Shown here one piece after another: positions 33,001 to 45,000 of a stretch of 64,000 nt of DNA. The DNA is from Pelomonas sp. SE-A7 (lineage in GTDB: Bacteria; Pseudomonadota; Gammaproteobacteria; Burkholderiales; Burkholderiaceae_C), in contig NZ_JAUASW010000001.1 of assembly GCF_030345705.1 (NCBI RefSeq), forward strand, positions 2,454,301-2,518,300. The letters run 5' to 3'. The first letter of the stretch is position 1. Every line of letters starts with the position of its first letter. The position numbers were made by a program.

Positions 33001-36000
33001 GCCACGGCGCACCGGTGGGGTGGAACCCCCAACCTGTGAGCCCTGCCTTCCAAGGCAGATCTGTTGGCGCCTGGCCGACCGAGCCGGTCAGTTCAAGCGC
33101 GAGTCCTTCGGCAGCCTTGCGGCCAGCCACTCATGCACGTCCGCTCGGATCCGCCTGCCCTTGAGCAGGAAGTCCTCGAAGCGGCTGGGCACGTAGGGTG
33201 TGAACAGCAGCGGCATCCTGGCTTCCTCCGGCGTGCGGTCGGCCTTGCGCGCATTGCAGGCGCGGCAGGCGGCCACCGTGTTCATCCAGCTGAGCGGGCC
33301 GCCACGCGAAGCCGGCAGGATGTGGTCGACCGTGAGGTCTCGCATATCGCGCGGCTCGCCGCAGTAGGCGCAGGTCTGGCGGTCGCGCCGGATCAACTTG
33401 AGTTTGCTGAAGCTGGGCGACACGTCGAACAGGTTCAGACGCGAGTTGCCACTGAGAGCCAGGATGGCGGGCACCTCCAGGATCGACTGATGGCCGGTGC
33501 GGACGTTCATCCCGCCACGCAGCACGGCCAGCGGCGTGTCACCGAGCGACCAGGCGATGGAGCGGGTGGCCACGTGGATGGCCGCCTGCTCGATCGAGAT
33601 CCAGGCCTGAGGCTGGCCGGTGATGTCCAGCTGCAATACGTCGTGCATGGCGTCCTCCCTTCTGTGACTGCGCACGAATCAATGTCTCTGGCAGGGGCGG
33701 CAGGGTTCGAACCTGCAAGCTGCGACTTCAAAGGCCGCTGCTCTTCCAGTTGAGCTACGCCCCAGCTGATGGCTTGTCGGGCAGCAGAGCTGCTCAACGC
33801 TGATAGTGATGACGGTTCTCGATCCCGCGACCTCCGGTTCGACAGACCGGCGCTCTTCCAACTGAGCTATGGCGACATGTTTCTCTTCTGGTCCGTGCGG
33901 CAGGACTTGAACCTGCAACCGCCTGCTCCCAAAGCAGATGCGCTACCAGTTGCGCTACACACGGGTCCTGCTCGCTGTGGCTGTCGGTGACGGGTTCCGA
34001 CGCCGCCCAATCGTTGCGGCCGGTTTCGCCGGTCGAAGCGCGAGCTCGACGACAGGCTTTGGTATGGCATCCCGTGCGGGAGTCGAACCCGCCTCTTCGG
34101 CTTGAAGGGCCGAGGACCTCACCGGAAGTCCAACGTGACAGAAATGAACGCTGGTGCCTCGTGAAGGATTCGAACCTCCGACTTCCGGCTTCGTAGACCG
34201 GCGCTCTGATCCACTGAGCTAACGAGGCGATGCAATCTCGGCTGTGTCCGCACGCGATCCGGGCAAGCGAGGCTCGCCTTGACCGCTGCATGCCGGCTCC
34301 GTCTGCAGAACGTGCGCGGCACACATGCACACCGGGCCGGCCGGTGCTTGTGCACGGGCACACCCGAAATGGCATCAATCCGATTCGCAGGCGCCAAACA
34401 AAAAGCCCGGTTCCTGCAGGAGACCGGGCTTCATGGGATCGACGGATCCCTGGAGTACGAAAGCTTCAGTAAGTTGGAGCTTTCCCCGGCGGCGTTGAGT
34501 CACCCTCATATCGGTCAAGGCGCGACTGGCCCTGTGCCAGCGGCAGCGCATGTCGACCTGCAGCGACGCACAAAGCCATCTCGCCCAAGAAGGGGCGTTT
34601 GGCGTTGGTGACGAGGGCTGGGCGAAGCATGATGAGTCCGTGTGGGTTGGGGTGAATCAACGAATGAGCGGATTGTGAAGAGTGTTCACAATCTCGTCAA
34701 CCACCTTTCACCCCTAGAATGCATGTGAAGTGTTTTAACAACACCCGCCGTGTCCAGCATCACTACCTTCCGTCGCATCAATGCCTTGTCGCTCTTCCAG
34801 ACTTTTGCGGAAGAGCGCATCACAGCAGGCGATCCTCCCAAGGGGCTGGAGTCGGCCTGGGCAACCAAGGTCGAGGTGAGCGGCGCCACCTGGTCGATGG
34901 CCAAGAGCGGGGCGCGACCGATCGGCGACAAGCTGGCGAGACAGATCGAGCAGCACTGCGGTAAGGATGCCGGGTGGCTCGATGAAGAGCGTGAGCCCGC
35001 GGGGCTATCTGCTGGGGAGCAGCAGTTCCTTGCGCTCGCGCTGAAGACCTATCGCGAGACGAATAGTGATGGGCGCAAGCGCCTGAAGCAGCTGCTGAAG
35101 GCGTTCAACACATAGGCTTCGACCGCGGCTGGAAACGAGCCCTTCGCCCCCTCGGGACATAGCAGCTGTTGCGGGAAGTCCAGCAACGGCGCAGCGGACA
35201 TCAGGTGCGGCCAGTCGCGGAGCCATCCCGCACAAGGCTCGAGGGCCAGCCAATGCGGACCAGCAGGCCGTCCGGCCCGGCAATCCCCACCTCGTAGAGG
35301 CCCCACTCGCGGTGACGCAGGACGCCGCCGGGGCGGATGATCAGGTCGTCCACGCGCGCGGCAATGGCGTCCACCTCCGGTGTGCGGATGAAGACGCCGA
35401 ACGGGTTGTGGGACTCGGGCACCCGCCAGGGACCGCTGCCCGCCTGCGTCAGGTGCACTTCGCAGCCCCAGCCGGTCATGATCAGGTAGTTGGCATCACC
35501 CCCCGTACGCTGGAAACCCAGGCGCTCCCAGAACGGCTGGGCCGCAGCCAGGTCATTGCTCGGCACGATGGCGAAGGCGCCTACGGTGACGGGGGTGGGC
35601 ATGGGGTGCTCCGGCTTGCGTTGGGTCGCCAGATTGTGCGGCGGCTAGTGCCGTCACTCACTTGCCTGCGGCAAATGAGTGACCTCCAAGCAATGCGCCC
35701 TTGTGCCGTCTCTCACTTGCCTGCGGCAAATGAGTGACGTCCAAGCAATGCAGCCTTGTGCCGTCTCTCACTTGCCTGCGGCAAATGAGTGACGTCCAAG
35801 CCCAGAAACCTGGGGCGCCCAGGGCGCCGCGCTGACTCCAACAAATAAAGTCCGTCGGAGAGGGCGCCGATAAGTGCTTGATTCTTCAGCACTGACGAGC
35901 TGGCGCAAAGTCCGTCGGGAGCTGCACGTTCGAAGCCCCTCGGGCAGTGATGACAAACAAAGTCAGTCGGAGTGCATGCTCGCGCTTCGAGGCAGCGATT

Positions 36001-42000: not shown

Positions 42001-45000
42001 CGTTCCCGGGAAAAGAATGTCGGCGATGCCGTCCCGGATCGAACCGATGCCCAGTTCGTCTCGGCTTTCCTTCTCTCGAAAGAGCGATAGGACACGCAGG
42101 CTGCGGTCTCTTGCGGCGGAGTCATGGTCAAGCCAGGTCAGGGAAGATGCCATCGAGTCTTCTTTGTATTTGCGGAGCAGCGCGGTTCAGATGCTGCTTT
42201 TAGCTTGGAACGGAATCCGAAGACGTTTTACGACGTCGCTCCCTGAATCGCCCCAGCATTCGTGGAGGCCGGTTGGTGTGAGTCAGACCGGGACGGCCTG
42301 ACGTGCAAGCTGGCTACGGTAGTTTGCCTCGGCTTCGGTCGGCGCCAACAGACCAGACTCAGTGTCAGCAGCCCTGCCGCAAGCAATCCGGAGGCACCTC
42401 TCGAAAGCACGAGTAGCGAGCTGAATACCGCGCAAGTCTGCATCGCCACTTTTTGGATCTGGCTGCTCCGTATCCGCTCCTCCAAACTAGGGCTCTTGCT
42501 GCATCAGTCCTTTAGGACGGGGTGCTGACACCGCCCAAGCTGGCGCCGTCTGATGTTGCGGCAAATGCCTTTCCCATTTGCCGCAACGTTTCTTCTAGAG
42601 TTGCGCCATCGACGAGCGGAGTACGAAATGCCCAGAACCACCAAGAGCCCGACGACGCGCAAGAAGGCCCAAGATGTGCCGTTGCTCAAAATCACTGTTC
42701 AGGTTTGGCAGCGAGCTGCCCAACGCCTCGAGGAGACCCTGCGAGACGCCTGTTTCCGGCGCGACGCGTACCTGGCCAAAGTCATCGAAGGCGAGCTCGC
42801 TTGCCTGGACCGGGAGGTCAGCATCCCGAACAGCCCTGAGGCCTACCGCTATGTGACCCAGGAGCTCGCAAAGCTGCCGCGCAAGGCGGTCACCATGCGG
42901 CTCCCACAGGCGCTGGTCGAACGCCTCGCCGAGATCTGCGAGCGCAAGCGGATCGTGCGTGACGCTTTCTTCAATCGGCTCTTTCTGCTGCTGGTTGCCG
43001 ATGCCAAGACGGTCGATCAATTGCTGTTCCTTGGCGATGACTGCGAAGACTGGCGCAGGGACTTGTGGAGCAATCACAAGAACGAAACTGACGCCTTCTT
43101 TGAGAACGGACTGTTCCCGCTACGCGCAGCGCAGGATCCACTCTGGGCCATCCGCATGGCCCTCGAAATCTGGAACGAAGAATCCGGTTGCAGCGAGAAG
43201 TGGGTGGAGCCCACAAGCGGCAGAGAGATCCTCATCAACCGAACCGTTGGCGGAGCACCTACGCCCATTGCAAGCATCTATGCGACCCCGTTCTCCATCA
43301 CGTTCAATAACAACCCGGGCGCAAGCCTGCTCGGGATGAGCTGCCACCTCCCAGACCGCCTGGTTCCGGATAGCGAAGCTGCCAAGAAGGAAAACGCTGC
43401 CTCGGAAGAACTGCTGGCAAGCCTCTAGGAGTGCGAACCATGGCGAAGACTCATCACGCACAGGCCCGGGCTCAGCAGCGTGGCCTGCCCCCATTCATCG
43501 AGGAACTTCTGGACCGCTATGGCGAGGAGAAGCACCTGGGTGGCGGCACGGTCGTCAGGTTTCTGAGCAAGCGCGGCCGGCGCCATATGGAACACGACAT
43601 GGGCAGACAGCCTGTCGCCAAGCTCTCGCAGTGGCTCGACGCATATGAGGTGAGCAGCACTGACGGTGCCGTCATCACGGTCGGCCACCGCACGCGCCGT
43701 CTCCGCTGCAAGACCTGAAACATGGAAAGTTTCCGCTGAGCCCCAAGCGATTCAGCAATCTCGCTTGTGTACGTACAGCGGACTCTGACCGCCGTTTTCG
43801 TCAAGCCACGCTATGTACCCGTCGTTCCAGACCAAGAACGACTGCTTTGCATCGTTGCCAATCTTCAGTGGCTTACAACCCTGCGATCGCTTCAGCGTAG
43901 ATGATCACATCTCGAAGCTGGGTTAGACCCGTGACGGACAGCTCGAAACCTGCGCCTCCTAGTGCTTCCTCCGGGTCTTTGACTTCAGTCTCAACGCGCC
44001 AGAAGCTTCGCTTCTCGTTCAGCGCCTTAAGCCCCACCAGCTTCTCTCCGTTAAAGGAAACCGTCGGGGCATCGCCACCTTCCCCTAGGATGGCAAACAC
44101 CACTTGGCCGGTAGGCCGCACAGGCTGTCCGTTCCAACGCATCAACTCCCTTGGCATCTTGAGGCGAATGGGGGGCCCTCCTGAATCGCGGCCAAGCGCG
44201 GCGAACTGATCCGCGAGGTCGGATCGCAGGCTGGAATAGACCCAAATCGAGCCGCCCATTTCAACAGCATCCTGAAGCTTCATCGCGAGGTCTTTGTCTG
44301 CCTGAACTGGATCTGCACCAGGCTCTGCGGTATATCGAATGTGGAGAACGACGTCAGAGATGGTGGCGTAGTCAAACAGGCGGACCATGTTTGGCAAGTC
44401 GAGCCGCCATTCGCTATTGATAGCCCCAGCGCCCTCAAAGGGCAGGTACCGCTCATCTCTGAGGTTCGGTTCCCAGAGGCCGGCGTCGTTGTTGGCCGTA
44501 CTACTAAAGATTGCTTCCGCCGGCCCAAGTACGCGCTCGGGTTTCTCCTGGTCTGGCTTTCGGATCTCGCTGCGCAGGAGACTCAACCTGCATGAAACGC
44601 CTGCATAGGGTCCGGTAATACACTGAACCGACAGCGCTACGGATTTGATCCTTCGCATGCACTGCCCCGGATGATCCATGTCGAACAGCACCTCAGGTAC
44701 CTTGAAGCTGCAACGCCCGGTAGCTCTCAACTCCAGCAGCTGCCGCGGGTCCACGACGGCAAGGGAGACATGCTTCATCAGCTCCGGTACACGTTTGTTG
44801 CGCTTGATGTGCTCAGACTCCAGTCGCTTCAAGTCATGAATCAGGCTGCTTGCGGCAAGCAGTCCTTTTCGTAGCCCATTCCAGTGATCTGAGCGTACGA
44901 CCTTGACTCCGGACTGTGACGCCGGGAGCTCTCGATTAAGGCAGTCCTCGGCCGCTCTCGCATACTCGGCCGCCAGCTGATAGGTCTTGTAATAGACCGT

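Follow-up and report, generated by a model that had tools for sequence, protein, structure and literature searches.

Which anti-phage system, if any, is encoded by the three minus-strand genes at positions 36000-42153 of the 64,000-nucleotide (nt) stretch of Pelomonas sp. SE-A7 DNA analysed here (contig NZ_JAUASW010000001.1; hereafter the window)? The original prediction, made from the sequence, read them as a phage-defence cassette composed of a protein without recognisable domain, a phospholipase D (PLD)-type nuclease and a helicase, and held that this combination matches no named system with confidence, although Azaca was listed among the candidates. Our analysis leads us to conclude that the locus is very probably an intact Azaca anti-phage operon, zacA-zacB-zacC, which was horizontally acquired by a Pelomonas/Roseateles-like betaproteobacterium. 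Its genes are, with protein lengths in amino acids (aa):

40960..42153, minus strand: zacA, 397 aa, a DUF6361 protein that opens the operon
39158..40954, minus strand: zacB, 598 aa, the PLD-superfamily nuclease subunit with two HxK...N motifs
36000..39161, minus strand: zacC, 1053 aa, the superfamily 2 (SF2) helicase/ATPase subunit

The family assignment was made by scanning the three proteins with the profile hidden Markov models (HMMs) of PADLOC, complemented by those of Pfam and NCBIfam. The 397-aa protein matches the PADLOC model of ZacA (E 1.2e-129, model positions 1-394 of 396), the 598-aa protein that of ZacB (E 2.1e-167, positions 1-583 of 586) and the 1053-aa protein that of ZacC (E 0, 1087.7 bits, positions 5-1016 of 1019), whereas the runner-up PADLOC matches, to DrmD, DpdE, BrxH and DrmC, score 15-70 bits and cover about 60 residues of the helicase C-lobe or one HKD motif. 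The published architecture of Azaca consists of a DUF6361 protein, a PLD-like nuclease and an SF2 helicase (Millman et al. 2022). The window holds the ZacA, ZacB and ZacC components in co-oriented A-B-C adjacency and inherited as a unit: the same three families in the same order, with intact catalytic motifs, without a modification gene and as a stand-alone mobile cassette. No architectural difference from Azaca is seen, and the window copy is a Burkholderiales orthologue that shares about 41-59% identity with most of the family members seen. Orthologous trios are present in RefSeq under the names 'DUF6361 family protein / phospholipase D family protein / helicase-related protein', for instance on the Cronobacter plasmid pESA3.

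The predicted phage-defence cassette of helicase and PLD nuclease is thus borne out, in that all three proteins fit the PADLOC Azaca models, and Azaca was rightly among the candidates. The further suggestion that the cassette fits no named system and may be undescribed does not hold in view of the full-length ZacA, ZacB and ZacC matches in canonical order. The prediction had itself stated that it would be refuted if profile HMMs assigned all three genes to an already named system of the same architecture, and such an assignment is what the PADLOC models returned. The operon is an already known system, and the locus has little discovery value, since routine annotation with PADLOC or DefenseFinder would identify it as Azaca. 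It is genuine, intact and apparently functional, and nothing sets it apart within a system that has a name and has been characterised by experiment. Some points count against this assignment. Membership rests on the PADLOC profile HMMs together with the architecture, at an identity of about 44% to enterobacterial homologues, and Pfam and NCBIfam alone give ZacB no name, the match to PLDc_2 being sub-threshold. NCBIfam contains no Azaca equivalogs and yielded sub-threshold matches to DpdE, DrmD and RapA only.

The coordinates and composition of the genes agree with the tight spacing and low-GC setting that had been described for them. A gap of 5 nt separates zacA from zacB, and zacB and zacC overlap by 4 nt (ATGA). 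The cassette has a GC content of 0.61-0.62 and a GC content at third codon positions (GC3) of 0.71-0.72, as compared to 0.68-0.72 and 0.85-0.91, respectively, for the core genes at 1-33 kb, and it is located at the edge of a lower-GC island that extends to the end of the window. The three open reading frames (ORFs) are real genes and not chance ORFs, because full-length homologues occur in hundreds of genomes. Scans of the locus found no sigma-70-like promoter and no terminator-like sites clearly above chance.

The trio is widespread and is kept together. More than 2,200 relatives of ZacA are present in the protein collection, and at least 593 species-representative genomes encode one. We compared 84 loci, of which the 71 with at least 5.1 kb downstream of zacA are informative; zacB and zacC are colinear and full-length in 67 of these, so that the proposed check for co-occurrence of the trio across genomes turned out in favour of a colinear unit. 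The hosts belong to the Pseudomonadota, Thermodesulfobacteriota, Myxococcota, Planctomycetota, Acidobacteriota, Chloroflexota, Bacillota and other phyla. In Limnobacter the trio is flanked by an AAA_15/21 ATPase and a tyrosine integrase, in Sorangium by BREX-like PglX/PglW genes, and the flanks of a metagenome locus are unrelated. Plasmids, too, encode relatives of ZacA: there are 48 such records, of which 16 are predicted to be conjugative, and the full trio was checked on one of them, Cronobacter pESA3.

The other four of the 71 informative loci appear fragmented or truncated. One, in a Spirochaetia metagenome-assembled genome (OZ253665.1, 9001-11780; L060), has zacA and a truncated zacB, with zacC undetected despite more than 7 kb of downstream sequence; the other three (L049, L070 and L075) show split or partial matches to zacB or zacC. 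All four are likely to be decaying copies. On the Cronobacter sakazakii virulence plasmid pESA3 (L085, NC_009780.1, 80518-87775) a tyrosine recombinase gene immediately precedes the trio, and a ZacA homologue is carried by 21 Cronobacter plasmids. The sole match in the phage collection is a distant ZacA-like segment (13075-13956) of an unannotated 24-kb 'Bacteriophage sp.' contig from human faeces (MT835621.1, H16); it covers 69% of the query at 30% identity (E 9e-24).

Horizontal acquisition is most evident from a Limnobacter contig (L001), which in a blastn comparison with the window produced a single high-scoring segment pair of 6158 nt at 92.5% identity and none outside it:

36026..42182, minus strand: the transferred unit, matching positions 9971-16128 of the Limnobacter contig

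Homology sets in sharply about 30 nt ahead of zacA and breaks off just as sharply about 8 codons short of the zacC stop. The GC content of the cassette is 0.59 in Limnobacter as opposed to 0.44-0.49 in the flanks, and 0.61 in the window as opposed to about 0.70; since the cassette is GC-richer than its surroundings in the one genome and GC-poorer than its host in the other, it is foreign in both. That it is the cassette alone which is 92.5% identical to Limnobacter at the nucleotide level indicates a recent exchange of the bare operon. Neither terminal repeats nor mobility genes were seen within the segment common to the two genomes. The locus thereby provides a clean example of a defence cassette that moved operon-only between Burkholderiales genera whose GC contents differ widely. 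The short sequence GG(A/G)GCGATTCAG(A/G)GAG recurs in both genomes about 105 nt before the zacA start codon, which is about 75 nt upstream of the point where homology begins.

The nuclease function of the operon is most likely carried by ZacB. The two PLD-type motifs that had been predicted in the middle gene were located as H111-x-K113...S136-R-N138 and H300-x-K302...G317-S-x-N320, and their H111/K113/N138 and H300/K302/N320 residues are invariant among 34 aligned ZacB sequences. Arg stands in place of the canonical Asp in each of the two motifs, for which reason we regard ZacB as an HKN-type enzyme like Tdp1. In the AlphaFold2 model (predicted local distance difference test score, pLDDT, 85.9) the PLD fold spans about residues 1 to 350-430 and is followed by a C-terminal beta/helical region. 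The best Foldseek match of this model in the PDB is Tdp1 (E 1.7e-7), further matches being phosphatidylserine synthase, SauUSI (3e-4), the NgoAVII R protein and PLD1, with probabilities of 0.97-1.00 for all five. Searched as a family profile against PDB sequences, ZacB matches the HKD motif of SauUSI (E 0.0022), whereas individual sequence searches of ZacA, ZacB and ZacC against PDB chains gave nothing useful. Pfam PLDc_2 is matched sub-threshold only, in 22 of the 34 family members, and scores 15.8 bits as opposed to a gathering score of 27; it is therefore the motifs and the predicted fold that place ZacB in the PLD superfamily. Both features that define this (HKD) superfamily are present, namely the pair of HxK(x)nN/GSxN motifs and the pseudo-dimeric alpha/beta fold that bears them. 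As the best structural match to the catalytic core, Tdp1 shares with ZacB the two HxK...N motifs and the lack of the canonical Asp, but sequence identity between the two is 11-12% and the TM-score 0.31-0.45, and Tdp1 serves in eukaryotic repair, where it removes 3' adducts, and is not a helicase-coupled endonuclease.

ZacC is certainly an SF2 helicase. Its motifs GLGKT (46-50), DEFQ (254-257), SAT (288-290) and QREGRVHR (915-922) are invariant across 22 aligned ZacC sequences, and they are distributed over RecA lobe 1 (about residues 15-300) and RecA lobe 2 (about 860-930), which are separated by a family-specific insertion of about 550 aa. Pfam recognises DEAD (2.8e-8), Helicase_C (4.5e-7) and also ResIII in the protein. 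The predicted SNF2-family ATPase with intact motifs is thus upheld as to its motifs and its placement in SF2 but not as to its label, since the window ZacC has no match to SNF2-rel_dom (PF00176), the domain that defines the SNF2 family; this domain matches 4 of the 22 family members, all at E >= 0.032. An SNF2-like character is nevertheless plausible. By profile, the nearest and sole detectable solved relative of ZacC is the C-lobe of RapA (E 7.7e-6), and the likeness of ZacC to RapA, DrmD and DpdE is limited to this lobe.

The leading gene, described in the prediction as lacking any recognisable domain, does encode one: ZacA is a Pfam DUF6361 protein (PF19888, E 6.5e-66, 223 bits as compared to a cut-off of 25). 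It is predicted with confidence to adopt an all-alpha fold, for which no solved structural relative was found in the PDB, and its sequence has chance matches only among PDB chains, namely to a P450 (E 0.02) and to 8ga6 (E 2.4). This fold without solved relative, together with the recognition of ZacB as a two-lobed, HKN-type (Tdp1-like) PLD enzyme, lends the locus some modest value.

How would such an operon act? The purified ZacABC proteins of Bacillus massilioanorexius (BmAzaca) cut double-stranded DNA of phage T4, from 10 nM and in preference to other substrates, in a reaction that requires all three subunits, i.e. a complex of nuclease and nucleoside triphosphatase, and that is abolished by mutation of the ZacC Walker A motif or of the ZacB nuclease site (10.1101/2025.07.10.664194). 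The cut sites, mapped all over T4 DNA, are almost independent of sequence (A|NT) (10.1101/2025.07.10.664194). The Azaca operons of Bacillus and Klebsiella protect against T4; the reported effect exceeds 10^6-fold and the spectrum is narrow, with T-even phages at its centre, and the authors of the preprint suggest as the cue for Azaca the glucosyl-hydroxymethylcytosine (glc-HMC) carried by T4 DNA (10.1101/2025.07.10.664194). We infer that the mechanism at the window locus would be the same as that of these homologues.

On this basis ZacC may use ATP to load onto invading DNA or translocate along it, and would thereby license the two-HxK-N site of ZacB, which would cut via a covalent phosphohistidine intermediate. 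ZacA would be an obligatory, non-catalytic subunit with a novel all-helical fold, serving either as a structural element or adaptor or as the sensor. Self DNA would be spared as it would be free of the cue, which is most likely hypermodification of cytosine, and Azaca would then behave as a Type IV (modification-dependent) restriction enzyme that is built from three subunits and needs no methyltransferase. No methyltransferase was found among the seven neighbouring ORFs scanned, and its absence near the locus would be explained by the proposed lack of the cue in self DNA. Modification dependence of Azaca is a hypothesis that we put forward as such. Taken in its full form, in which ZacA reads hypermodified phage DNA or couples sensing by ZacC to cutting by ZacB and in which the Burkholderiales clade could recognise a modification other than the glc-HMC of T-even phages, we consider it rather improbable. 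The last element follows from the observation that this clade moves as a bare 6.2-kb operon between genomes more than 20% apart in GC content and therefore could recognise a different modification. Two points in the published work count against the scheme: mutation of conserved ZacA residues had no effect on cleavage in vitro, and dependence on modification is suggested there by no more than the preference for T4 DNA (10.1101/2025.07.10.664194). The role of ZacA and the cue that is read make up the remaining mechanistic question on Azaca, but this is a question about the family and is not specific to the window locus.

Instead of a modification, ZacC might detect a structural cue, for example free DNA ends, intermediates of replication or, in the manner of Hachiman, DNA damage, whereupon ZacB would degrade DNA indiscriminately as in abortive infection. 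This explanation we hold to be possible but doubtful. It would account for the high degeneracy of the BmAzaca motif (A|NT) and the spread of its cuts over T4 DNA (10.1101/2025.07.10.664194), and it agrees with our failure to find any modified-base reader domain (SRA, YTH, EVE, winged helix) in ZacA, ZacB or ZacC and with a review-type preprint in which Azaca is classed alongside Hachiman-like nuclease-helicase systems and a comparable mode of action is hypothesised. However, it does not sit easily with the fact that BmAzaca favours T4 double-stranded DNA over other phage or host DNA in vitro, that is, without any context of infection, nor with the narrow, T-even-centred protection, and cleavage by Azaca, unlike Hachiman, needs the helicase Walker A motif.

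Modification dependence, for its part, would place Azaca close to the SauUSI-type Type IV enzymes (PDB 7CLG), in which a PLD nuclease, an SF2 helicase and a target-recognition domain are combined in one polypeptide. Both couple a PLD nuclease to an ATP-dependent SF2 motor without cognate methyltransferase, ZacB matches SauUSI in its HKD motif and in its fold, and the published target preference of Azaca is for DNA with modified cytosine. Different from SauUSI, Azaca divides these functions among three proteins; ZacB contains both HKD halves itself, while SauUSI, which dimerises, contains a single one; an SRA-like reader was not detected in the Azaca proteins, and ZacA has no counterpart. A fused PLD-helicase protein was considered as well and rejected, the NCBIfam family 'phospholipD_antiphage' scoring 30.5 bits as compared to a cut-off of 1100.

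That the cassette might instead be a degenerate or partial DISARM or Dpd (7-deazaguanine) module, with a DrmD/DpdE-like helicase and a DrmC/DpdK-like PLD nuclease that lost their partners, has next to no probability. These systems likewise pair an SNF2-like/SF2 helicase with a PLD nuclease and show a weak likeness to the window proteins in the C-lobe and the HKD motif: ZacC has weak NCBIfam matches to DpdE (68.1 bits) and DrmD (58.6 bits) and matches many DrmD/DpdE models of PADLOC, and ZacB has marginal matches to DrmC (E ~1e-3). Yet the matches are confined to the helicase C-lobe of about 60 residues or to the second HKD motif, they stay far under the curated cut-offs (500 bits for DpdE, 610 for DrmD), and the ZacA, ZacB and ZacC models lead by hundreds of bits over the full length. 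Moreover, DUF6361 is a protein family specific to Azaca, 67 of 71 loci hold the trio as a self-contained unit, and neither DrmA, DrmB (DUF1998), a methyltransferase such as DrmMI/II nor the dpdABC modification module was found among the neighbouring ORFs scanned. With scores below the cut-offs and no partner genes in the flanks scanned, the cassette belongs to neither system. Mokosh (MkoA with MkoB or MkoC), which was discovered in the same screen as Azaca and also combines a PLD-like nuclease with a helicase, was rejected too, as no Mko model of PADLOC matched ZacA, ZacB or ZacC; its helicase is an SF1 (Upf1-like RNA) helicase whereas that of Azaca belongs to SF2, and Mokosh II cleaves single-stranded DNA. 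In distinguishing the cassette from both DISARM and Mokosh the original prediction was correct.

A housekeeping pair of a RapA/HepA RNA polymerase-recycling ATPase and a cardiolipin/phosphatidylserine synthase-type PLD enzyme, which the prediction had named as the other way in which it might fail, is effectively ruled out by context and scores: the RapA C-lobe is indeed the nearest solved sequence relative of ZacC and phosphatidylserine synthase is among the fold matches of ZacB, but the RapA equivalog scores 36.3 bits as opposed to a cut-off of 576, ZacB matches no Cls or Pss family and is best matched in fold by the DNA-acting PLD enzymes Tdp1, SauUSI and NgoAVII, and foreign composition, 92.5% nucleotide identity to a genus of 45-50% GC, variable flanks and plasmid copies are not those of a housekeeping pair.

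The surroundings of the Azaca operon in the window comprise the following features:

32822-34228, minus strand: tRNA cluster Leu(CAG), Gln(UUG), Pro(UGG), Glu(UUC), Arg(ACG), with Azaca just beyond
33088-33675: 195-aa HNH endonuclease ORF between tRNA-Leu and tRNA-Gln
34750-35115, plus strand: 121-aa ORF between the tRNA cluster and Azaca, similar to phage CI-type repressors (phrog_12107, E 7.6e-8)
42553-43428 and 43431-43718, plus strand: 291-aa and 95-aa gene pair with a 2-nt gap, divergent from zacA, GC3 island-like (0.73-0.78)
43873-54042, minus strand: TcA, 3389 aa, with TcA_TcB_BD, ABC_toxin_N, neuraminidase-like and VRP1 domains
54148-54747, minus strand: 199-aa ORF between TcA and TcB-TcC, without matches
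54861-62318, minus strand: TcB-TcC fusion, 2485 aa, with SpvB, TcdB mid domains, FG-GAP and RHS

The neighbours had been predicted to be defence-adjacent toxin or toxin-antitoxin (TA) genes in a typical defence-island habitat. What was found is a Tc toxin complex (TcA and TcB-TcC), which is neither TA nor defence, and besides Azaca no match to a defence system was obtained among the neighbouring ORFs scanned: for the seven of them, PADLOC revealed no further defence protein beyond HNH likeness at sub-family level. This likeness concerns the 195-aa ORF and is generic, extending to PtuB, Cas9-HNH and PDC-M01B. For the 291-aa/95-aa pair neither Pfam and NCBIfam nor PADLOC and PHROGs gave any match; it could be an uncharacterised TA-like or defence-associated pair. 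The 121-aa ORF has no match in Pfam; at another of the compared loci (L003) an HTH_3/HTH_31 gene likewise precedes zacA.

Upstream of the island the window contains ordinary chromosomal genes, which encode a chromate transporter, peptidases, a TonB-dependent receptor, a peptide symporter and an amidohydrolase (27579-28877). The last of these proteins shows 100% identity to its counterpart in Pelomonas sp. SE-A7 (Roseateles, Sphaerotilaceae, Burkholderiales). Within this core of about 0.70 GC, a dip to 0.62-0.66 is present at 8649-11119 on the minus strand, over two ORFs of 237 and 599 aa for which Pfam gave no match at E <= 1e-5. Finally, the C-terminus of the TcB-TcC fusion shows a weak Ntox10-like toxin domain, and the Tc (ABC) insecticidal-type toxin complex that adjoins Azaca in the lower-GC island is unusual for a Roseateles/Pelomonas-like freshwater betaproteobacterium.

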